A stretch of DNA of 64,000 nucleotides from Vicinamibacterales bacterium (GCA_035637115.1 DASPXV010000059.1:24242-88241); one strand, 5' to 3'. Counted from the first letter of the stretch, positions 22,999 through 47,102 are shown. Notes: a model not told the origin generated them from the sequence alone. Numbers and translations: made by a program.

Positions 22999-24870
22999 AT
23001 GTCCCGAAAGTTCGTCGTCATCGCCGCCCTCCTGACGGTATTTCGGGCCGCGCCGGTCTTTGCCGCGCCGGCCGAAAGACCGTCCGCGGGTGAAAGCAAG
23101 CTCGATCGCGAGCTCCAGGCCCGCGCGCGCGTGCCGCGTGGCAGCTCGCGCGTCATCCTCCGGCTGACTCCTGGCGTTTCCCCCGCGTCCGCTGAACGCG
23201 CCATCCGCAGCTTCCGCGGAACGATCGGCCGCCGCCTCGCGTCCGTTGGCGGTCAGGTCGCGTACGTTCCCGACGGCTCGCTCGACGCGCTTGGGCGCGT
23301 ACCGGGCGTGTCGAGCGTGAGCCTCGATCGCCGCGTGCAGGGAACGCTGGAGCGCACGGGCGGCACCATCGGTGCGAACTGGGTCCGCGAGAACCTCGGG
23401 TTCGACGGCACGGGCGTCGGCGTCGCGATCATCGATTCGGGCGTCGCCAACTGGCACGACGACCTCGGCAGCGCCCGTGTCTCGCGCTTCGTCGATTTCG
23501 TGAACTTCCAGACCGCCGCCTATGACGACTATGGCCACGGAACCCACGTCGCGGGGGTAATCGCGGGGGACGGCCACGACTCCGAGGGACGCCGCAGCGG
23601 CATCGCGCCTGGCGCCACGCTGCTGGTCGAGAAAGTCCTCGACGCGTCGGGTCAGGGATATATCAGCAACGTCATCGCCGCGATCGATTACGCGATCGCA
23701 AACAAGGACGAGCTCCACATCCGCGTCCTCAATCTCTCGGTGGCCGCGGGTGTTTACGAGTCGTACAACACCGATCCGCTGACGCTCGCCGCGAAGCGCG
23801 CCGTCGAAGCGGGCATCGTCGTCGTCTCCGCCGCGGGCAATCTTGGGAAGAATGCGGAGGGACAGCCGCAGTACGGCGGCGTCGGTGCCCCCGGCAACGC
23901 GCCGTGGGTGATCACGGTAGGCGCCTCGAGCCACAACGGCACGACGGATCGGTCGGACGACACGGTCGCGGGATTCAGTTCGCGCGGACCGAGCGCGATC
24001 GATTTCCAGGCGAAGCCGGATCTCGTCGCGCCCGGCGTCGGCATCGAGTCGATCGCGGAAGCGGGCAGCACGCTGTGGAACACCAAGCCGCTGATGCGGC
24101 TGTGGGGCACGGTCCCGACCGCGACCGAGCCGTACCTCTCTTTGAGCGGCACGAGCATGGCGGCCCCAGTCGTCACCGGCACGATCGCGCTGATGCTGCA
24201 GGCGAACCCGGCGCTCACACCGAACCTCGTAAAGGCGGTCCTGCAGTTCACCGCCGAAACGCACACCGCTTACAACGGCCTCACGCAGGGTGCGGGATTC
24301 CTGAACGCGCACGGCGCGGTGGATCTGTCGCGCTCGGTCGCAACCGGCGCGTCTCTCGATGCGTCAAACGTGACGACCACCACCGACACGGTCGAGTGGG
24401 GACGCCGGATCATCTGGGGCAACCATCGCGTGGGGGGCGGCGAGCTGCGCGCGGATGCGAGCGCCTGGCGCACCGACGTGATCTGGGGCAGCGGACTCAC
24501 GCCTGACGGGTCGCCCGTCGTCTGGGGCACGGCATGCACCGGTGACTCCGAGTGCGACAATATCGTCTGGGGCACGACGTGCGACACCGCCGAGTGCGAC
24601 AACATCGTGTGGGGCACGGAGTGCGGCGGCGCCGACTGCGACAGCATCGTCTGGGGCACCGCGTGCGACAGCGCCGAGTGCGAAAAAACCGTCTGGGGCA
24701 CCGCGAGCGAGAGTGACAACATTGTTTGGGACATGGACGCCGACGGGGAAAACGACAATATCGTCTGGGGCACCAACGTCCTCGATGAATCCGACAACCT
24801 TGTCTGGGGCGCGCCGGCGATCCGGCGGCAGTCCCGGATTCTCACCGTGATCGATCCCTGGTTTAAATGA
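22999..24870 (+). CDS. Secreted subtilisin-like (S8) serine protease with a C-terminal xxIVWG repeat region
   Basis: The signal peptide is MSRKFVVIAALLTVFRAAPVFAAPA. The Asp/His/Ser motifs are VAIIDSGV, HGTHVAG and SGTSMAAP. Confidence 0.85.
   Translation: MSRKFVVIAALLTVFRAAPVFAAPAERPSAGESKLDRELQARARVPRGSSRVILRLTPGVSPASAERAIRSFRGTIGRRLASVGGQVAYVPDGSLDALGRVPGVSSVSLDRRVQGTLERTGGTIGANWVRENLGFDGTGVGVAIIDSGVANWHDDLGSARVSRFVDFVNFQTAAYDDYGHGTHVAGVIAGDGHDSEGRRSGIAPGATLLVEKVLDASGQGYISNVIAAIDYAIANKDELHIRVLNLSVAAGVYESYNTDPLTLAAKRAVEAGIVVVSAAGNLGKNAEGQPQYGGVGAPGNAPWVITVGASSHNGTTDRSDDTVAGFSSRGPSAIDFQAKPDLVAPGVGIESIAEAGSTLWNTKPLMRLWGTVPTATEPYLSLSGTSMAAPVVTGTIALMLQANPALTPNLVKAVLQFTAETHTAYNGLTQGAGFLNAHGAVDLSRSVATGASLDASNVTTTTDTVEWGRRIIWGNHRVGGGELRADASAWRTDVIWGSGLTPDGSPVVWGTACTGDSECDNIVWGTTCDTAECDNIVWGTECGGADCDSIVWGTACDSAECEKTVWGTASESDNIVWDMDADGENDNIVWGTNVLDESDNLVWGAPAIRRQSRILTVIDPWFK
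24409..24810 (+). repeat. Ten coding repeats of (I/V/L)(I/V)WG spaced 8-20 aa apart, many as CDNIVWGT
   Basis: Recurrent ATCGTCTGGGGC-type motifs encode IIWG, VIWG, VVWG, IVWG x3, TVWG, IVWD, IVWG and LVWG. Confidence 0.75.
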
Positions 24871-29956: not shown

Positions 29957-31264
29957 TTACTTATGCTTGCGGTCGATCCAGGCCAGCGCCCGCTCGAGCG
30001 TCGCGTCGTGCCCGGACAGCAGCGACTCGCGCGTGAGATCCACGGGTTCGTCGGGAATCACGCCGCGACCTTCGATCCGGACGCCGGTACCAGTAACGAA
30101 ATCCCCCCACGCATGGATCAATACATCGCCGTTCGGCAGGCGATCGAACAGCGCTGGAAGCGCCTGCCCCATCGACGTCTGCCCGAACACTCGCGCGCGG
30201 CCGATCGACTGCATCCCGCCGCTGAAACATTCGGAGGCGCTGCCCGTCAGGCCGTCCACGAGGATCGCGACCGGCCCGTCGTACGGCTCGACGCGCTCGC
30301 CCGCCGCGCTCACGAGCCGCGGGTTGGCGTTGAAGCGCAGCGGCTGCGACTGCTTCGTCGTCATCACGCCGAGCGTCGCGCGCTCCGGAAAGAAATGTCC
30401 CGCGAGTCCCATGATCATCGCGGCCAGTCCGCCGGGATTCCCGCGTAGATCGATCACGATGCCGTCGGCGCCGCGAAACCGATCCATCGCCGCCTGGAAT
30501 TCGCGATCCACCGCGGCCATCCAGACGTTGAATCCGATGACGCCCGCCTTATGTCCGCCCGGAGTTTGCGTCAGCGATGACGACACTCTGACGAACATCG
30601 TCGGCAGGCTGCCGACGGTCACCGGCTCGCCGCGCTCGAACTTGCGCTCGATCGTCTTCTTCACGCTCGCGCCGGATCCGTCGATGAACGTGATCTCCAC
30701 CGGCGAGTTCGACGGCCCGCGAAGCCGCAACAAGGCCAGGCGCCACGCCTGCAGCTGCGCGAGCCGCGGAGGCGTCGATTCGGGGATCGTCTCGAGGAAC
30801 GAAGAGACGGCCGTCGCGTCAATGCGATCCACGATCCAGCCCGGCTTCACGCCCGCGGCGGCCGCACCACCTTGAGGATCGACGCTCGTCACCACGAGCG
30901 TCCGTCCGAGAAGGCGGACGTCAAGGCCTGGCTGACCTCCGAGATCCACGTGGTGCGACGGATTGTCGGGCGTCGCTGGAATGACGGCGAAATGCGACAG
31001 GCCGAGGCGTCCGAGCATGTCGGCCAGAACCCCGCGAAGATCGCCGGGTGTCTTTGCCTCTACAGCCTTGGGACGCAGTTCGGCGTTGATGCGATCCCAG
31101 TTCGCGCGATCGAACGCGGGATCGAAGTGGCTGTCGCGCACGATCGTCCAGACCGCATCGAACGTTTCCGCCGCTTTGTAGGTCTCGGCTGCATGGCCGC
31201 GGACCGCCGTGAAGAACAAGACCGCGAGCAGCCCGGCCGCCGAGACCGAATGCCGCAATCTCAC
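29957..31264 (-). CDS. S41-family (tail-specific-like) peptidase
   Basis: A signal peptide is followed by ...IVIDLRGNPGGLAAM... and ...AILVDGLTGSASECF... Confidence 0.8.
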   Translation of the reverse strand: MRLRHSVSAAGLLAVLFFTAVRGHAAETYKAAETFDAVWTIVRDSHFDPAFDRANWDRINAELRPKAVEAKTPGDLRGVLADMLGRLGLSHFAVIPATPDNPSHHVDLGGQPGLDVRLLGRTLVVTSVDPQGGAAAAGVKPGWIVDRIDATAVSSFLETIPESTPPRLAQLQAWRLALLRLRGPSNSPVEITFIDGSGASVKKTIERKFERGEPVTVGSLPTMFVRVSSSLTQTPGGHKAGVIGFNVWMAAVDREFQAAMDRFRGADGIVIDLRGNPGGLAAMIMGLAGHFFPERATLGVMTTKQSQPLRFNANPRLVSAAGERVEPYDGPVAILVDGLTGSASECFSGGMQSIGRARVFGQTSMGQALPALFDRLPNGDVLIHAWGDFVTGTGVRIEGRGVIPDEPVDLTRESLLSGHDATLERALAWIDRKHK

Positions 31265-32025
31265 CTGATAAGCGCCTTGATTGCCGCCGGCGGTTCGAAC
31301 ACCGACGGATCGACCTTGTCGAACTCGACCGAGATCAGCGTGATCATCTGCTCGACGCCCATGATTTTCTGGGTGACGATCGTCGCCTGCATCAGGTCGC
31401 CGAATTTCTTGTATGCACCGTCAATGCTGGTCATCGTCATGGTGCCCATCGGAGACTCGCGGGTGTTGATCCCGCCCGCGCGAAGTCCCGTCGTCGCATC
31501 GTAGAAGTCGAAGTCCTCGACGCCGTCGATGCGCGACAGCGCGACCTTGTAGCACGGACGGCCGTCGAACGTCGTTTTCTCGACGGTCTTCACCGTCGGA
31601 TATTTCTTCGGGTCGCGCAGCTCGCTGTAGAAGTCCGCGTCGAGCTTCGTCTGCGTGAGCTCCTTGCCGACCTTGAGCATCGGTCCGGTCATCGGGGACA
31701 CGGACCAGGCATGCGAGCCATCGAAGCCCTCCATGATGTCGCCGATTCCCTGTACGGACGTCTTCACGATCACGCGGTCGGGCCCGGTGGCGCCGAACAT
31801 CTCGATTGGGCCGGAGAGGCCGGATGCAGGCACGGAGAGCGTGCCGGCAGCGTGCATCGACTTGTGCGCGAGCACAACCTCACGGCCGCCGATCGCCTTG
31901 ATGTGGCGATTGATGATCTCGCGCGCATCCGGCAGCGTCTCTGCTGCTGTCTGCGACGTGGCCGGGGCTTGCGCATAAAACGGCGCGAACAGCAGCGCCG
32001 CAGACGCGACGACTCTTAAGAACAT
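31261..32025 (-). CDS. Secreted hypothetical protein (possibly LolA-fold-like)
   Basis: The signal peptide is MFLRVVASAALLFAPFYAQA. There is an ATGA-type overlap with the S41 gene. I cannot confirm a family. Confidence 0.45.
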   Translation of the reverse strand: MFLRVVASAALLFAPFYAQAPATSQTAAETLPDAREIINRHIKAIGGREVVLAHKSMHAAGTLSVPASGLSGPIEMFGATGPDRVIVKTSVQGIGDIMEGFDGSHAWSVSPMTGPMLKVGKELTQTKLDADFYSELRDPKKYPTVKTVEKTTFDGRPCYKVALSRIDGVEDFDFYDATTGLRAGGINTRESPMGTMTMTSIDGAYKKFGDLMQATIVTQKIMGVEQMITLISVEFDKVDPSVFEPPAAIKALIR

Positions 32026-32365: not shown

Positions 32366-33574
32366 TCACCGCTTCCTTCCCTTTACGAAGACATCGACGT
32401 TGTCGGGCCGCGGGTTCGAGAAGGACAAACGGATCCTGCCGTCCAGATCCTGGGAGATGACGGCAGGGATGGAGCTCGTCGTCAGGTACCACCCGGCGGG
32501 CAGGACCATATCATTGCGCGGGCGACCGAAGCTGCGATGCCACATGAGCTGTCCGTCGACGAGTGCGTAGCGCGTTGGATCGGTGTAGGTCTCGGAGATT
32601 CTGAGACGCACCGACGTGCCTTTCGCCACTGGCGTGAACGGGATGAGCACGAGTTGCGTGTCGGGATCGACGCGATCGGGGATGTCGATCTTCTCGCGCG
32701 CAACGTCCGCGCCCGTCAAGACGCGCGTCTTCAGGACTTCGCCGGTATCGAGGATTCTGGCCGACGGCTCCGAGACGGTGCTGCCGGTGCGCACGACATT
32801 GACGTACTGATGCTCCCCCTCGCGGGACGCTGTGTAGTCGTGGTACAGCGAGAAGGCGTGCGTCTCGGGCTCCTTCAGGAAATAGACGATCTCTCGATCC
32901 TGGAGCGCGCGTTCGGTGACGCGGATCAGGTTCATCGCCTGCTCGCGCGACGGCGCGTCCGCCATCGGCGGAGTCGGTGCGGCCGCCGGCGGGGCCGCGG
33001 AAGACGTGGGCCGCGCTGCAACAGGACGTGCCTTGATGACGAGTGGCGCCTCGACGGGGTACAGGTTCATGAAGCTTGCGGCGATCCGGCCGTCCGCTTC
33101 TTCGATCACTTGCACCGGGACATTCGCCGCCACAAGCTCGTAGTTGCCGGGAAGCACGACGGCGTTCCGTTTCACGTCCACGGTCCGCTTGAACACCAGC
33201 GTGTCCCCGTCGCGTGAATAAGACTTCGGGTCTTTGAAGGTCTCAACGATCCGCAGACGCGTCTCGCCCCCTTCGGGCACCGGCCGCGCAAGGTCGATGC
33301 GGATGCTGTTCGATGCGATCGCGAACTTGAGCGGGCGACCGGTCAAGATGTCGATCACCGACACATCACTCGGTCGGTCTTCGCCGGCGATCGCGACAGC
33401 AAACGATTTGGCGCCAACCGTCCCCGCCGTCACGTCGTACGTCAAGCGATAGCCCGCCGTCTCCGGCGCGAGCAACTCGTAGCGCGCGTACTCGTCTTCA
33501 CCGTGGGTCTGCGCAAAAGAGGACGCGGCCGAGAACATAAACCAAACGGCGAGCACCGGTTTCATAGTGAACAT
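32366..33574 (-). CDS. Secreted hypothetical protein with an internal two-domain duplication
   Basis: The signal peptide is MFTMKPVLAVWFMFSAASSFAQT. The two halves share ...RLRI(V/S)ET(F/Y)(K/T)DP..Y...VLP(G/A).(Y/W)...DGRI..SF.N... Confidence 0.55.
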   Translation of the reverse strand: MFTMKPVLAVWFMFSAASSFAQTHGEDEYARYELLAPETAGYRLTYDVTAGTVGAKSFAVAIAGEDRPSDVSVIDILTGRPLKFAIASNSIRIDLARPVPEGGETRLRIVETFKDPKSYSRDGDTLVFKRTVDVKRNAVVLPGNYELVAANVPVQVIEEADGRIAASFMNLYPVEAPLVIKARPVAARPTSSAAPPAAAPTPPMADAPSREQAMNLIRVTERALQDREIVYFLKEPETHAFSLYHDYTASREGEHQYVNVVRTGSTVSEPSARILDTGEVLKTRVLTGADVAREKIDIPDRVDPDTQLVLIPFTPVAKGTSVRLRISETYTDPTRYALVDGQLMWHRSFGRPRNDMVLPAGWYLTTSSIPAVISQDLDGRIRLSFSNPRPDNVDVFVKGRKR

Positions 33575-33582
33575 ACGTTTAG

Positions 33583-33825
33583 CACAGAGACGCACAGAGC
33601 GTACTTCGGGCTGTGGCACCGCCGGGGCCGGCCGTCGGAAGGCGAGGGTACTCACGGATCCAAGGGCCACAGGATCGACGGGCGCTTGGATCCGTGAGTA
33701 CCCTCGCCTTCCCGCCGCGCGAAGCGCGGCCCGGCGGTCGATACGCGCAACTAAGGTCCGCGACGAGGTTTTCGTCGGTGTAATCCGCGTGGTCCGTGGC
33801 TAATTTCGCTCTCTGCGTCTCTGTG
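33583..33825. repeat. Nested palindromic intergenic element (MITE-like or structured RNA)
   Basis: The outer 19-bp inverted repeat (33583..33601 and 33807..33825) matches at 18 of 19 positions. The inner inverted repeat is a perfect 28 bp (33637..33664 and 33685..33712) with a 20-nt loop. There are two further small hairpins. Confidence 0.8.
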
Positions 33826-33865
33826 ACCTCCGCGCCTCCGTGGTTAACGTCCTCCGCGTCCTCCC

Positions 33866-35089
33866 TCAACTCAGCGCCCTCCCCTTCGTCTCAGGTATCC
33901 AGATCCAGAACATCGCGGCGAGCAGGAACGCGGCGGAGCAGACGAGCAGCGCCTGGCCGAAGCCGCGCGTATCGGCGAGGGTGCCGACGAGATACGGCGC
34001 GGCGGCGCTCGCGAGGCGGCCGATGTTGTACGTGAAGCCCTGCGCCGTTGCGCGCACGGCGGTCGGATAGATCTCCGCCGTCACGGCGCCGAAGCCGCTG
34101 AAATATCCGGTCGCGGCGAAAGCGACGCACGGGCCGAGCACGAGCAGCAGCATCGGGTTCCTCACGGTGACGTAAATCGCGAGGAGTACCGCCGCCGCGA
34201 GCAGGTAGCTGACATACGCCGCCTTGCGGCCGATGCGATCGCTGATGAATCCAAACGTCACATATCCGACCCACATGCCTGCCTGCATCACGAACAAATA
34301 GCTGGTGGTCGTGGCGCCGCTGAGTCCCGCACCTCCCTGCGCTGGCGAGGACTTCAGATAGCTCGGGAGCCACAGATTGAAGCCCCACCACGCGAACAGC
34401 GTGCAGGTGTTCATCAGCGTGAGGATCACGGTGAGCCGCCCGATCCCGCTGCGGAAAATCGTCAGGAAACCGGCGGACCCGGCACGCGACTTCGCCGACA
34501 TGGTCCAGATGGCCGGTTCCTTTACTCGGCGCTGGACCCACAACGTGAAGAACGCCGGCAGAATGCCGACGAAGAACACGGCGCGCCAGCCGAAGCGCGG
34601 CTGCACGAACCCGGCGACGAGCACGGCGGCGGCATAGCCAATCGCCCAGCCGCTCTGCATGAAGCCGAGCGCGCGGCCGCGGCTCGAGGCAGGCCACGAC
34701 TCGGACACGAGTGCCGCGCCGCTCGACCACACGCCGCCCATTCCGAATCCGAGGAAGATGCGGAGCACGACGAACTGCGCGAGCGTGTTCGCGAAGCCGC
34801 ACAGGAACGTGAAGACCGAGTACAACGCGACGCTGAGCATGAGCGCGCGCGTGCGGCCGAATCGATCCGCGATCCGGCCCGAAATCACGCCCCCGACCGC
34901 GGCGGCAACGAGCATGACGGATCCGAGGATGCCACCCTGCGCCTTGGTAAGCGCGAGATCTGCGCTGACGGCCGGCAACACGAGCGCGAACAACATCACA
35001 TCGAACGCGTCGAGCATCCAGCCGAACGTGCCGGCGGCGAGCCCGCGGTGCGCGTCACTGCCCGCTTCGCGCCACCAGCCCGGTGTCAT
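33866..35089 (-). CDS. MFS transporter
   Basis: 407 aa with roughly 12 hydrophobic helices and ...GRIADRFGRTRAL..., an MFS loop 2-3 motif. Confidence 0.85.
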   Translation of the reverse strand: MTPGWWREAGSDAHRGLAAGTFGWMLDAFDVMLFALVLPAVSADLALTKAQGGILGSVMLVAAAVGGVISGRIADRFGRTRALMLSVALYSVFTFLCGFANTLAQFVVLRIFLGFGMGGVWSSGAALVSESWPASSRGRALGFMQSGWAIGYAAAVLVAGFVQPRFGWRAVFFVGILPAFFTLWVQRRVKEPAIWTMSAKSRAGSAGFLTIFRSGIGRLTVILTLMNTCTLFAWWGFNLWLPSYLKSSPAQGGAGLSGATTTSYLFVMQAGMWVGYVTFGFISDRIGRKAAYVSYLLAAAVLLAIYVTVRNPMLLLVLGPCVAFAATGYFSGFGAVTAEIYPTAVRATAQGFTYNIGRLASAAAPYLVGTLADTRGFGQALLVCSAAFLLAAMFWIWIPETKGRALS

Positions 35090-44835: not shown

Positions 44836-47046
44836 TCAGAACTCGATGAGAATGCCCACCGACGGAACGATCGGCAGCATCGAGTCGAACGGCCGCGACA
44901 CAGATCGCGACGACACGTTGATCACCGGTGGATCGAACCGCACGTTGGCGCGATTCAGCACGTTGATCACTTCGGCAAAAAGGGTGAGCCGCCGTCTCGA
45001 CCAGTCGAATGCCCGGTTCGCGCGGAGATCCAGGCGCGCGTAAACCGGCAGCCTCGCGCCGTTTCGTACATCGCTCAACTGGTACACGTCCGTACCGGAT
45101 TCCTTGGCATAGTAGCCGGGAATCGGGAAGTTGCTGCCGACGCGCAGCTTCGTGACAAAGCTGACGCGATCGGAGTGCCGGTACATGGCGTACGCGTTCA
45201 GTGTGTGGCGCTGATCGTTGTCCCCCCAGAACGATTCGTGCGAGACAACGTCCATGTCGCGGTTACGGCTATACGCGTAAGAGAACCAGCCGGAAATCCC
45301 CGCACGGGCGACCGTGCGCTGCACCATCAGCTCGACGCCGCGCGCGAAACCGTCAAGCCGGTTCTCGTACTTGGAGCTCGCGAGACGGCGGACGACGCGG
45401 CCGTTTACGACCCGCGTTTCATTGCCGAACTGCCTCAGCATCTGATCCTCTTCGCGGTCATACACTGTTGCGGTGAGTCGTAGAGAACGCGAAAGCCGCT
45501 GCTCGACGCCGATGTCGAACTGTGAGGCGCGTTCCGGAACGAGCCCGACGCCGCCCGACGCGCCGAGCACCTTGTCGAAGTCCGCGAACTGCTGATACTG
45601 TCCGGCGGCGCCGCGAATCTTGAATCCTTCGAACGCACGCCACTCCGCCTGGATCCACGGCGACGTCGTGGACTGCCGCGTCAGGTTCCAGTGATCCGCG
45701 CGCAGACCGGGCGCGATCGTGAGCGTTGAGCGTGGAGACCACTTCAGCAGGGCGTAACCGCCGGTCGCCGCTCCATTCGCGCTGTAGTCGTCGAGCTGCG
45801 CAAGCGTGAGGCGGTTGGACGCGAGGCGGCGTCTCACTCGCCGGTCGTCGCGACGCTCCGCCTCGCCACCGGCGTCCAACTCCAGCGCCGGGCTGACGAC
45901 GAACCTCGCATCCGCGCGATACGCGAGCTGACGATCTTTGCCGTTGTCGAGCTCGACGTCGGCCTGGTTCTCGTTCCTGAAATGGTTTTCGGCCGCGAGT
46001 ACGCGCTGCGTGAGAATCACGCGCGGCCGCGCGATGCGCCACGACGCAACGCCGACGACGGCCGCGTTCGTCGCATCGTAGACGTCGTCGATGTCGTGCT
46101 CCCCCGGCTCGTTCTGAAAACGTGAGTGCCCGGAGAGCAGCGTGACGTCGACGTGCTGCGACGGCGACACGTCGTACGCGAGCCGTGCCTGCGCATCCGC
46201 GAAGCCAAAGCTGACCCCGTGTTCCGTGAGATGACGAACCAGGTGATCGATGTACGACTGCCGTCCCGACACGAGCCAGGAGCCGCGGCGGTTCCGTCCG
46301 AACGGTCCTTCCGCGACAGCGGAGGCGCTCGTTCCGCTGACCGCGACGCGAAAGATGCGACGGTCCCGCGCCCCTTCGCGCAACCGGAAGTCCACCTCCG
46401 CCCCTGTATGTCCGCCATAACGCTGCGGATAGCCGCCGTTGAGCAGCGTCACGTCGTCCAGCACATCGCTGTTGATCATGGCGACGGAACCCGTCGGCCC
46501 GCGGTCCTCCACGCCGCGGACGGTGTGCAGCAGGTAGGGCGTGGCGAAGCCGTCGACGGTGAACGTGAGATGGCGGAAGTCGCTGCCGCGCACGGTGAAC
46601 TCACTGCGAAGATCGTCGCCGGTCGCGACGCCGGGGAGCACCTGCACCGCGCGAAGGGGATCGTCGGCAAGCACGCCGCGCAGGTTCAGGAGCTCAGCGC
46701 TGCCAAGGACGGATGCGGACGGAACGGGATCGGGCGGTGATCGGAACGTATCCCCTCTGACCGTCACGGACTCGCTGTAGGCGGTCGTCCCCTCGCTCAA
46801 TCGCACCACGACGGACGTGTTGTCCCGCGCGACCACTACTTGGGCTCTGAACACGGCGTAGCCGACGACAGAGACGTAGAGGCGGTGGACGCCTGGCGCG
46901 AGTCCCTCGATGCGCCAGGCACCGTCCGCGCCGGTCAGCACCGCCTGCCCGGTGTCTTCGATGACCACGCGGACACGTTCCAGCGGTGCCCCTGTCCGCG
47001 CATCGACCACCTGCCCGGCGAGAGGGGTCAAACCGGGGTCAGACAC
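44836..47046 (-). CDS. TonB-dependent receptor with a carboxypeptidase-regulatory-like domain; the true start probably lies upstream of the called GTG
   Basis: ...GQVVDARTGAPLERVRVVIEDTG...GAWRIEGLAPGVHRLYV... is followed by plug and barrel regions, ending ...VGILIEF. The called N-terminus lacks a signal peptide. Confidence 0.75.
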   Translation of the reverse strand: MSDPGLTPLAGQVVDARTGAPLERVRVVIEDTGQAVLTGADGAWRIEGLAPGVHRLYVSVVGYAVFRAQVVVARDNTSVVVRLSEGTTAYSESVTVRGDTFRSPPDPVPSASVLGSAELLNLRGVLADDPLRAVQVLPGVATGDDLRSEFTVRGSDFRHLTFTVDGFATPYLLHTVRGVEDRGPTGSVAMINSDVLDDVTLLNGGYPQRYGGHTGAEVDFRLREGARDRRIFRVAVSGTSASAVAEGPFGRNRRGSWLVSGRQSYIDHLVRHLTEHGVSFGFADAQARLAYDVSPSQHVDVTLLSGHSRFQNEPGEHDIDDVYDATNAAVVGVASWRIARPRVILTQRVLAAENHFRNENQADVELDNGKDRQLAYRADARFVVSPALELDAGGEAERRDDRRVRRRLASNRLTLAQLDDYSANGAATGGYALLKWSPRSTLTIAPGLRADHWNLTRQSTTSPWIQAEWRAFEGFKIRGAAGQYQQFADFDKVLGASGGVGLVPERASQFDIGVEQRLSRSLRLTATVYDREEDQMLRQFGNETRVVNGRVVRRLASSKYENRLDGFARGVELMVQRTVARAGISGWFSYAYSRNRDMDVVSHESFWGDNDQRHTLNAYAMYRHSDRVSFVTKLRVGSNFPIPGYYAKESGTDVYQLSDVRNGARLPVYARLDLRANRAFDWSRRRLTLFAEVINVLNRANVRFDPPVINVSSRSVSRPFDSMLPIVPSVGILIEF

Positions 47047-47102
47047 GGGTCTGACTCCGGTTTGAGCCCGGTCTGACCCCGGTTTGACCCCGGTTTGACC
47101 CC
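47025..47102. repeat. REP-like palindromic repeat cluster
   Basis: GGGGTCAAACCGGGGTCAGAC (47025..47045) is followed by its reverse complement twice. The copy at 47049..47069 has 2 mismatches and the copy at 47071..47091 is perfect. An extra GGTTTGACCCC follows. Confidence 0.8.

Follow-up and report, generated by a model that had tools for sequence, protein, structure and literature searches.

A nested palindrome lies in the 291-nt spacer between two co-oriented minus-strand genes of a Vicinamibacterales (Acidobacteriota) bacterium. The 64-kb stretch of that genome that was analysed is called the window here, and positions are counted from its first letter. The two genes encode a major facilitator superfamily (MFS) transporter and a conserved secreted hypothetical protein. 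With moderate confidence we read the element as a non-coding, 'Russian-doll' palindrome at the level of DNA, similar to repetitive extragenic palindromes (REPs), bacterial interspersed mosaic elements (BIMEs) and miniature inverted-repeat transposable elements (MITEs), which is passively carried and has been remodelled from the hairpin tip. Each outer arm is an array of 8-9-nt units, C-R-C-R-G-A-G followed by 1-2 nt, with a 'TTAAC'-type foot. Such arrays were found in many other genomes, and the footed CRCRGAG-array family is defined here by a TT(A/C/G)AC foot followed by at least two tandem C-R-C-R-G-A-G units with 1-3-nt spacers, in an intergenic position, with an inverted partner optional. 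The element in the window fits this definition.

The original prediction, made from the sequence of the window, described a nested palindromic element at 33583-33825 in the spacer between the two same-strand genes, and all of its features were found where it had placed them. Recounting the outer 19-bp inverted repeat (33583-33601 / 33807-33825) again gave 18/19 matching positions, and ungapped extension gave 24 nt at 88%; 0/100 dinucleotide shuffles gave two matches. The inner inverted repeat, GGAAGGCGAGGGTACTCACGGATCCAAG, is perfect over 28/28 positions, as had been stated, with arms at 33637-33664 and 33685-33712 and a 20-nt loop. Extension to 32 nt gives a match of 97% and leaves 12 nt between the arms, and the repeat is the longest local inverted repeat of the window. 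The 291-nt spacer folds as gene-sense RNA with -159.8 kcal/mol (z = -7.8), and as DNA with z = -8.4. Two small hairpins of 6 bp that had also been pointed out (33714-33728, 33761-33777) are present, but they carry little meaning, being trivial in DNA of 65-69% GC, and the one at 33761-33777 is disrupted in the near-identical strains L002 and L003.

While the predicted structure held, its boundaries did not. The element is larger and less symmetric, reaching from ~33575 to ~33850, and its MFS-proximal arm has two extra units and a foot, to ~33850 (Table 1). Read in gene sense on the minus strand from 33850 down to 33807, this array is ACGTTAAC-CACGGAGG-CGCGGAGGT-CACAGAGA-CGCAGAGAG-CG, that is, a canonical TTAAC foot and four units, two of the GG and two of the AG type, with the partner array at 33583-33601. 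The foot on the other side, ACGTTTAG, aligns with the foot CTCTGTG(C/T)TAA(A/C)CGT found at the corresponding junction of the relatives L247, L249 and L250. Arrays of at least two units occur in the window only at this element (0.2 are expected from shuffles), and the four-unit array is the sole one.

The arm 19-mer CACAGAGACGCASAGAGCG was used to scan one genome per GTDB species, and at least 118 stretches matched. The expectation under uniform composition is ~9 stretches, which is our own estimate and probably too low for repeat-like patterns. The case for a family is therefore built not on raw counts but on the foot that the matches share, their inverted partners and their position between genes. 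The matches listed have a common design, in which a foot (TTAAC, TTCAC or GAAC) is followed by usually three tandem C-R-C-R-R-A-G units with 1-3-nt spacers. Among them 66/119 have an inverted partner arm (CTYYGYG units, at least 19/26 positions, within 400 nt), giving hairpins of 54-500 nt. Clear hairpins occur, among the matches listed, in ~11 phyla: Cyanobacteriota, Chloroflexota, Planctomycetota, Acidobacteriota, Gammaproteobacteria, Myxococcota/'delta' bins, Thermodesulfobacteriota, Bacteroidota, Armatimonadota, Deferribacterota and FCPU426. Prevotella, Rhabdochlamydia and a Methanotrichaceae archaeon gave single matches without a partner, which could be due to chance.

The hairpins lie between genes of several kinds. 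Four of them were found within 8 kb in the gaps between hisD, hisC, hisB, hisA and hisF of a Muproteobacteria metagenome-assembled genome (MAG), three lie amid tsf, pyrH and frr of a Planctomycetota MAG, and in Nostoc they separate polyketide synthase (PKS) genes. The gaps are tandem in 23, convergent in 8 and divergent in 8 cases, a distribution that we judge to be roughly that of random intergenic placement, unlike that of terminators. Copies in the same genome have common interiors (two in L046, and three of ~500 nt in L056), so whole elements proliferate. The inner hairpin recurs as well. The motif GGAAGR-N-GGGY-N-GGATC has five matches in 3.9 Mb, where 1.4 are expected by chance, and 4/5 lie inside array-flanked hairpins of Myxococcota/delta-proteobacterial MAGs, so the composite itself is a recurring design.

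Arrays come in four flavours, CAGAG, CGGAG, CAAAG and CGAAG. In arrays that were not selected by the search patterns, the variable dinucleotide is identical in the first three units of 132/201, compared with 38.7 expected. Inverted partners have the complementary flavour, CACAAAG with CTTTGTG and CACGAAG with CTTCGTG. Homogeneous flavours and complementary partners together point to duplication or homogenisation of units. No transposase, integrase or REP-associated tyrosine transposase (RAYT) is recurrent near the arrays in 118 genome loci and the first 120 viral loci (~240 fetched). A recurrent neighbour gene was also rejected, since all-against-all clustering of 700 bacterial and 1033 viral open reading frames (ORFs) returned only ordinary families (response regulators, ABC ATPases, short-chain dehydrogenases/reductases) and phage structural genes.

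Three observations from individual genomes belong here. Nostoc sp. P10324 bin 2 contains a ~165-nt MITE in three copies (L023:3980-4145, L058, L083), with a perfect 16-bp terminal inverted repeat (TIR), TAGCCCTTTCAAGGTG, TA on both sides in the manner of IS630/mariner, and, in its middle, two CAGAG arrays in inverted orientation, so other elements can carry arrays as passengers. The hairpin of the Nostoc PKS locus, together with its flanks, is also present in L021, a MAG labelled Acetobacteraceae. The proteins of L021 cluster with the Nostoc loci, and it is probably a mis-binned cyanobacterial contig. In Bacteroides fragilis NCTC 9343, upstream of BF2782, a two-unit array with a CAC foot is part of a published reverse primer, AACTCTGTGTTCTCTGTGGTG, and adjoins the invertible promoter of the large-capsule locus (PMC3090145). 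The family is therefore present in a tractable model organism.

Arrays are also found in phages. In IMG/VR, (CRCAGAGRN)x3 occurs in at least 120 entries and (CRCGGAGRN)x3 likewise in at least 120. The contigs with arrays encode portal, terminase, capsid and tape-measure proteins and belong to several clades of tailed phages. AG and GG flavours alike have a 5' foot of TTAAC or TTCAC. Among the AG-flavour viral arrays examined, 123/152 are solo, with no inverted partner within 250 nt. As a control, the permuted unit (CRGACAGRN)x3 was used; it still matched 36 viral stretches, which lack the foot and are for the most part long coding repeats in frame. Therefore, the family is defined by a foot plus about three units, and not by tandem repetition alone. 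Essentially no arrays are present in GenBank records of cultured phages or in PLSDB plasmids. The possibility that phage arrays are sense-strand elements of 5' untranslated regions or promoters was rejected. A crude count of 38 versus 18 had suggested such a bias, which stemmed from naive ORF calls and vanished once a robust local coding strand was used; solo footed arrays are then sense in 41 and antisense in 56 cases (p = 0.15). Heptamer arrays of other sequence, AAATCAT/AAATCGC, CTTAAAA and CCAGTAT, were seen next to CAGAG arrays in intergenic regions of the viral contigs L153, L140/L184 and L170.

Taken across bacteria and phages, the footed arrays TTAAC-(C-R-C-R-G-A-G-N1-2)x3 may be an unrecognised class of very small genetic element, occurring in at least ~11 bacterial phyla and several tailed-phage clades. 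We put this forward tentatively, as a possibility that is open to considerable doubt. Arrays of this class would occur solo or as inverted pairs that nucleate nested palindromes, their flavours would be homogenised within an array, and either a mobilising enzyme of a new kind or a conserved factor that binds DNA would spread or maintain them. The element of the window would be a large, old and layered example.

The history of the element was followed at its own junction, as the MFS-hypothetical gene pair is syntenic in relatives. A comparison with empty orthologous spacers, which the original prediction had proposed, gave a divided answer. The element is missing from L006, in which the genes overlap (ATGA), and from L252, in which the spacer is a plain 53 bp, with no arrays in either, but homologous arms occupy the orthologous junction in L247, L249 and L250. 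The 458-bp spacer of L247, from a distant Vicinamibacterales lineage whose neighbouring protein is 73% identical to that of the window, has the same design. A four-unit array (CACAGAGAT ACAGAGCT CACAGAGAC GCACAGAG) starts 27 nt past the MFS stop codon and matches the window array at ~73% over ~49 nt, and an inverted array with the foot CTCTGTGTTAACCGT stands ahead of the next gene. The core hairpins of L247 are entirely unlike those of the window. In L249, whose neighbouring protein is identical to that of L247, the apex of the innermost hairpin already differs. Because the arms are common to a lineage in which the neighbour protein is only 73% identical, the element is not a recent private insertion. 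The pattern of presence and absence fits either an old insertion with loss or repeated insertion.

Two more relatives have repeats of other kinds at this junction, and family arrays are absent from both. The spacer of L005 (115 bp) has direct GATTG-type repeats. That of L004 (139 bp) is a hairpin of CAKGAG units, in which 8-nt CAGGAGAT/CATGAGAT units face an inverted CTCCTG/CTCTTG arm (L004:1453-1591; neighbouring protein 71% identical). Several kinds of unit-array palindrome seem to arise readily at this junction.

The near-identical strain L002 differs from the window by 8 substitutions within the 291-nt spacer and by 22 over the remaining 5658 nt compared, so the spacer changes ~7 times faster than its flanks. 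At least 5/8 of the spacer substitutions fall in stems or array units, and 0 are compensated in the partner arm. The drift is neutral-like, and these comparisons suggest an old outer layer, rapid inner turnover and no purifying selection on the sequence within the species.

The element could then have been built as follows. The outer layer is an inverted pair of CRCRGAG arrays with a TTAAC-like foot on each, and inside the arms there is a weak GC-rich stem and then a perfect 28-bp hairpin that appears to be young. Arrays would arise or expand by duplication of units and would be copied as inverted pairs. The core would be replaced or extended at the tip of the hairpin, which would make the innermost layer the youngest and leave the outer layers to decay. 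The element would be carried passively in a putative MFS-hypothetical co-transcript, where it would form a very stable hairpin. If this hairpin alters the stability of the mRNA, or the translation of the downstream gene, which lacks a Shine-Dalgarno (SD) sequence, such an effect would be incidental and not the object of selection.

Table 1. Parts of the nested palindrome and the genes on either side of it (window positions).
Feature	Position	Strand	Remarks
Secreted hypothetical protein, conserved, 399/402 aa (downstream gene)	32366..33574	-	Without Pfam match; start 33574 or 33565
Left foot ACGTTTAG	33575..33582	+	Counterpart of the right foot; adjoins the start of the downstream gene (33574 or 33565)
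Outer arm L, two-unit array CACAGAGA CGCACAGAG CG	33583..33601	+	From sequence, inverted-repeat and array scans
Left linker	33602..33636	.	GC-rich part 33625-33644 pairs imperfectly with 33713-33732 (70% complementary) as a middle-level stem; from folds
Inner hairpin	33637..33712	.	Arms 33637-33668 / 33681-33712; loop 33669-33680; motif GGAAGG-N-GGGT-N-GGATCC
Right linker, 94 nt	33713..33806	.	Mostly unpartnered; contains both 6-bp hairpins
Outer arm R, CACAGAGA CGCAGAGAG CG on gene-sense strand	33807..33825	-	
Two more array units CACGGAGG CGCGGAGGT	33826..33842	-	Beyond the coordinates first given; without left-side partner; aligned with L247 array
Right foot ACGTTAAC	33843..33850	-	The 5' foot most frequent in the family is TTAAC
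Degenerate unit-like tract GGGAGGACGCGGAGG	33851..33865	-	Between MFS stop codon and foot
MFS transporter (upstream gene)	33866..35089	-	Stop codon 33866-33868

Four points weigh against a passively carried, REP/BIME/MITE-like palindrome. There is no second copy in the source genome sequence available (64-77 kb), and no target-site duplication (TSD), transposase, RAYT or integrase is associated with the family in the fetched loci. The arms and feet are ~73% identical over ~49 nt across lineages with 73%-identical proteins, which is above the expectation for neutral DNA and could reflect function, a binding site or repeated re-insertion. Finally, selfish spread alone hardly accounts for a unit and a foot that are kept from phylum to phylum and in the compact genomes of phages. 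Because of this conservation, of the arms between distant lineages and of unit and foot across phyla and phages, functional explanations stay alive.

The first of these is a selected, cis-acting RNA in a polycistronic mRNA, either a determinant of processing or stability (an RNase III substrate or a barrier to 3' exonucleases) or a control of translation. The REP between malE and malF, an intercistronic stability element, would be the analogue. The fold of the spacer is extremely stable, and the position, orientation and arms are kept in a distant lineage. A change in the inner stem of L002 makes a G.U pair on the sense strand. In addition, the stretch from the palindrome to the two candidate ATGs of the downstream gene (33574, 33565) holds no Shine-Dalgarno-like sequence. 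The two ATGs (window 33565-33582) are 8 or 17 nt past the 3' arm of the palindrome; GGAG or GAGG is present before orthologues of this gene that have no element or have a longer 3' tail.

We examined whether pairing in the transcript leaves a trace in the family using 56 non-redundant hairpins for which one strand holds at least 80% of the long-ORF length found within 2.5 kb. The sense strand folded better in 28 and the antisense strand in 26 (Wilcoxon p = 0.97), and a cruder earlier test agreed. With no strand bias in stability, nothing indicates selection for pairing in the transcript, and RNA-level selection was rejected on the two independent null tests. The structured RNA that had been offered as an alternative in the original prediction is thus left unsupported. 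Other facts also speak against an RNA element. Substitutions within the species are uncompensated, break stems and units, and accumulate at ~7 times the rate of the flanks; one core has given way to another between lineages; the element is missing at four orthologous junctions; and hairpins of the family occupy divergent and convergent gaps as well. Rfam gave only sub-threshold miRNA-hairpin look-alikes on the inner stem at the window locus, and no match at gathering thresholds at 18 family loci. We consider a selected RNA unlikely. No U-tract follows the hairpin and no terminator-like site lies on either strand, in agreement with the earlier statement that this is not a standard terminator. 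No intrinsic terminator or sigma-70 promoter site was found in the element, and a -35-like reading of the foot (TTGAC/TTAAC) was rejected by inspection, there being no -10 at the right distance inside the arrays.

A second explanation is that the arrays are putative double-stranded DNA binding sites for a conserved protein, such as a nucleoid-associated protein, a regulator or a mobilising enzyme, with each unit the site of one protomer and the foot the end of the site. The strict period of the units, typically three in number, the defined foot and the homogeneous flavours within an array are all consistent with this, as are the indifference to orientation, the occurrence of arrays solo or in inverted pairs and in compact phage genomes, and the conservation of the arms at the orthologous junction. 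On the other side, no candidate protein is recurrent near the arrays, a phased array on B-DNA would not usually have a period of 8-9 bp, and units mutate freely between near-identical strains. We regard binding sites as rather improbable.

The original prediction leaned towards a MITE, and part of that suggestion is sound. The element is a non-coding, miniature palindromic repeat, its relatives are multi-copy and some orthologous junctions lack it, but it has no TSD, no parent insertion sequence (IS) and no private ends, and for these three reasons it is not a classical MITE, meaning an internally deleted IS with private TIRs, a cognate DDE transposase in trans and a flanking TSD. Terminal inverted repeats do bound a short non-coding core (18/19, feet included; the ORFs have no homologues), the size of ~245-276 bp and the intergenic position are suitable, and the genuine TA-flanked MITE of Nostoc carries such arrays internally. 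However, the ends are tandem unit arrays which are common to many phyla and also occur alone, and orthologous arms are present in a distant lineage. The flanks, ACGTTTAG|...|GTTAACGT, are inverted and part of the palindrome, with no direct repeat at either candidate boundary. The search for copies and TSDs that had been recommended thus found no TSD, and no further copy in the 64-kb window or in a 21-kb stretch of the source contig (L001). A metagenome scan with a 19-mer of the inner stem gave two chance matches in coding DNA and missed the known JGI copy, and is hence uninformative. No parent IS or transposase with the ends of this element was found in the 118 genome loci or the first 120 viral loci. 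A classical MITE is very unlikely.

The element is not a RAYT-type REP either. A REP/REPIN unit is a self-palindrome of 20-40 bp with a GTAG or CGTC tag; the arms here are non-palindromic tandem arrays with a TTAAC-type foot and lack the tag, and the RAYT REP of N. punctiforme differs in sequence. No RAYT (Y1/HUH) gene lies in the fetched loci; RAYTs are single-copy and could be elsewhere in the genomes. A REP-like trait is present, namely high-copy intergenic hairpins made from inverted doublets, also within operons (his, tsf-pyrH-frr).

The last explanation, a fold-back chimera of the assembly or a chance palindrome, is hardly credible: five short contigs of relatives start within this spacer, so palindromes or repeats do disturb assembly here, but the structure is recovered with a few point differences in three independent assemblies and lies mid-contig in a 77-kb contig, and shuffle statistics contradict chance. 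The window comes from ENA assembly ERZ27253209 (contig k141_1134156), and the source names of identical and related proteins point to a Vicinamibacterales acidobacterium. Matching spacers are present in NCBI GCA_009772835.1 (98.2% identity over 451 nt) and JGI 3300012532 (99.5% identity). Because all three carry it, the element is not an assembly artefact, which disposes of a doubt voiced when it was first described. The five short contigs (L003, L248, L249, L250 and L251) come from different metagenomes, and each has its position 1 inside this spacer; assemblers break at the palindrome because of either a repeat elsewhere in those genomes or the hairpin itself. The two ORFs that cross the spacer had been suspected to be artefacts of the repeat, and this is borne out, as they have 0 homologues in a search of 5.8 billion proteins and the gene calls of the source contig leave the spacer empty.

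Several other features of the window deserve mention. A second unit-built palindrome lies at 505-612, with about six TCCCAAT units (517-561), a short loop and about six TTGGGAG/TTGGTAG units (567-610). Each pair of units has an identical T.G mismatch, which would be a wobble pair only on the plus strand. The direct repeats at the MFS junction of L005 are built from a similar unit, GATTGGG. A third unit-built palindrome, at 47024-47102 between two minus-strand ORFs, is composed of 11-nt GGGGTCAGACC / GGTCTGACCCC units in 32-nt arms that are 88% complementary. It includes GGGGTCAG, which fits the GGGGWSAS motif; this motif occurs in TIRs flanking tyrosine-transposase (TIRYT) genes, including those of Acidobacteria (Di Nocera et al. 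2013, PMC3733652). At 24519-24774 a 42-nt sequence with a CGTCTGGGGCAC core is repeated in tandem about four times (83% matches); as the period is divisible by 3, it may be a repeated protein module. Strain L002 from NCBI lacks the 128 nt at 31377-31504, and this loss joins a 254-aa ORF (31261-32025) to a peptidase S41 ORF (29957-31264), so that the two are called as a single 646-aa gene.

Small palindromic repeats such as REPs, MITEs and the small dispersed repeats (SDRs) of cyanobacteria shape operon expression, genome rearrangement and the quality of assemblies, and the origins of only a few of their families are known. Here, the apparent TIRs of a soil acidobacterium are one case of a unit-built, footed array that recurs across phyla and phages without a linked transposase. 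If the family is indeed undescribed, it makes it testable how repeats of <30 nt spread or persist so broadly, whether palindromes grow by insertion at the hairpin tip, and whether a host or phage factor reads the arrays. On the practical side, the element accounts for spurious ORF calls and contig breaks at this locus.

Comparison with known systems places the element near several of them. It is neither a terminator nor an attC site or a retron, and it belongs to no Rfam family. Intrinsic terminators are likewise GC-rich hairpins downstream of a stop codon, but they have a U-tract and a shorter stem, whereas the present family is also found in divergent gaps and between tightly coupled operon genes. 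The attC sites of integrons are imperfect palindromes every 1-2 kb between co-oriented ORFs, as are the hairpins of L039 and L043, with AAC...GTT-like feet and a broad range of phyla including archaea. The stems here differ in being long and nearly perfect, and an attC or cassette array was rejected given the housekeeping his and tsf-pyrH-frr neighbours, feet outside RYYYAAC/GTTRRRY and no integrase found. A retron non-coding RNA was considered for the outer repeat, which resembles a1/a2, and the long inner hairpin; it was rejected, as no reverse transcriptase gene was found and the downstream gene encodes a secreted protein.

Correia/NEMIS, ERIC, RUP and Nezha MITEs share with the element a length of 100-300 bp, TIRs, a hairpin formed by the whole element, a location near or between genes, and co-transcription. 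They have private, IS-derived TIRs and a TSD (TA for Correia). Here there is neither, and the array that would be the TIR also occurs solo. The REP, BIME and REPIN sequences of E. coli and Pseudomonas are alike in being short non-coding palindromes in intergenic positions, including those of housekeeping operons, without a TSD, and in forming inverted doublets that fold into long hairpins, with mosaics possible (Bertels & Rainey 2011, PMC3116915; PMC3733652). REP units are imperfect palindromes of 20-40 bp with a GTAG or CGTC tag and are tied to RAYT transposases (PMC3116915, PMC3733652). REP families are mostly lineage-specific, whereas the array unit here is common to phyla and phages.

No description of the array family was found in Rfam, by exact sequence among 8 million papers or by keyword, the eight consensus sequences of SDRs aside. 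The surveys of REPs and RAYTs describe other sequences, and the sole relevant match to a published sequence was the B. fragilis PCR primer, which happens to contain an array. The footed CRCRGAG-array family is therefore possibly undescribed, as far as sequence comparison goes, and it is set apart from SDRs by description only. The nearest concept is that of the SDRs of Nostocaceae, credited to Elhai et al. in 2008, which are reportedly 21-27 nt long and nested in hairpins and larger MITEs. Like the heptamer arrays of cyanobacterial short tandemly repeated repetitive (STRR) sequences and the SDRs, the arrays here are very short intergenic repeats, of 24-27 nt, and they are abundant in Nostoc and Calothrix. 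SDRs have been reported only in Nostocaceae, according to the citing passage in PMC5861425, while, compared by description only, the array family forms clear hairpins in ~11 phyla and extends to phages.

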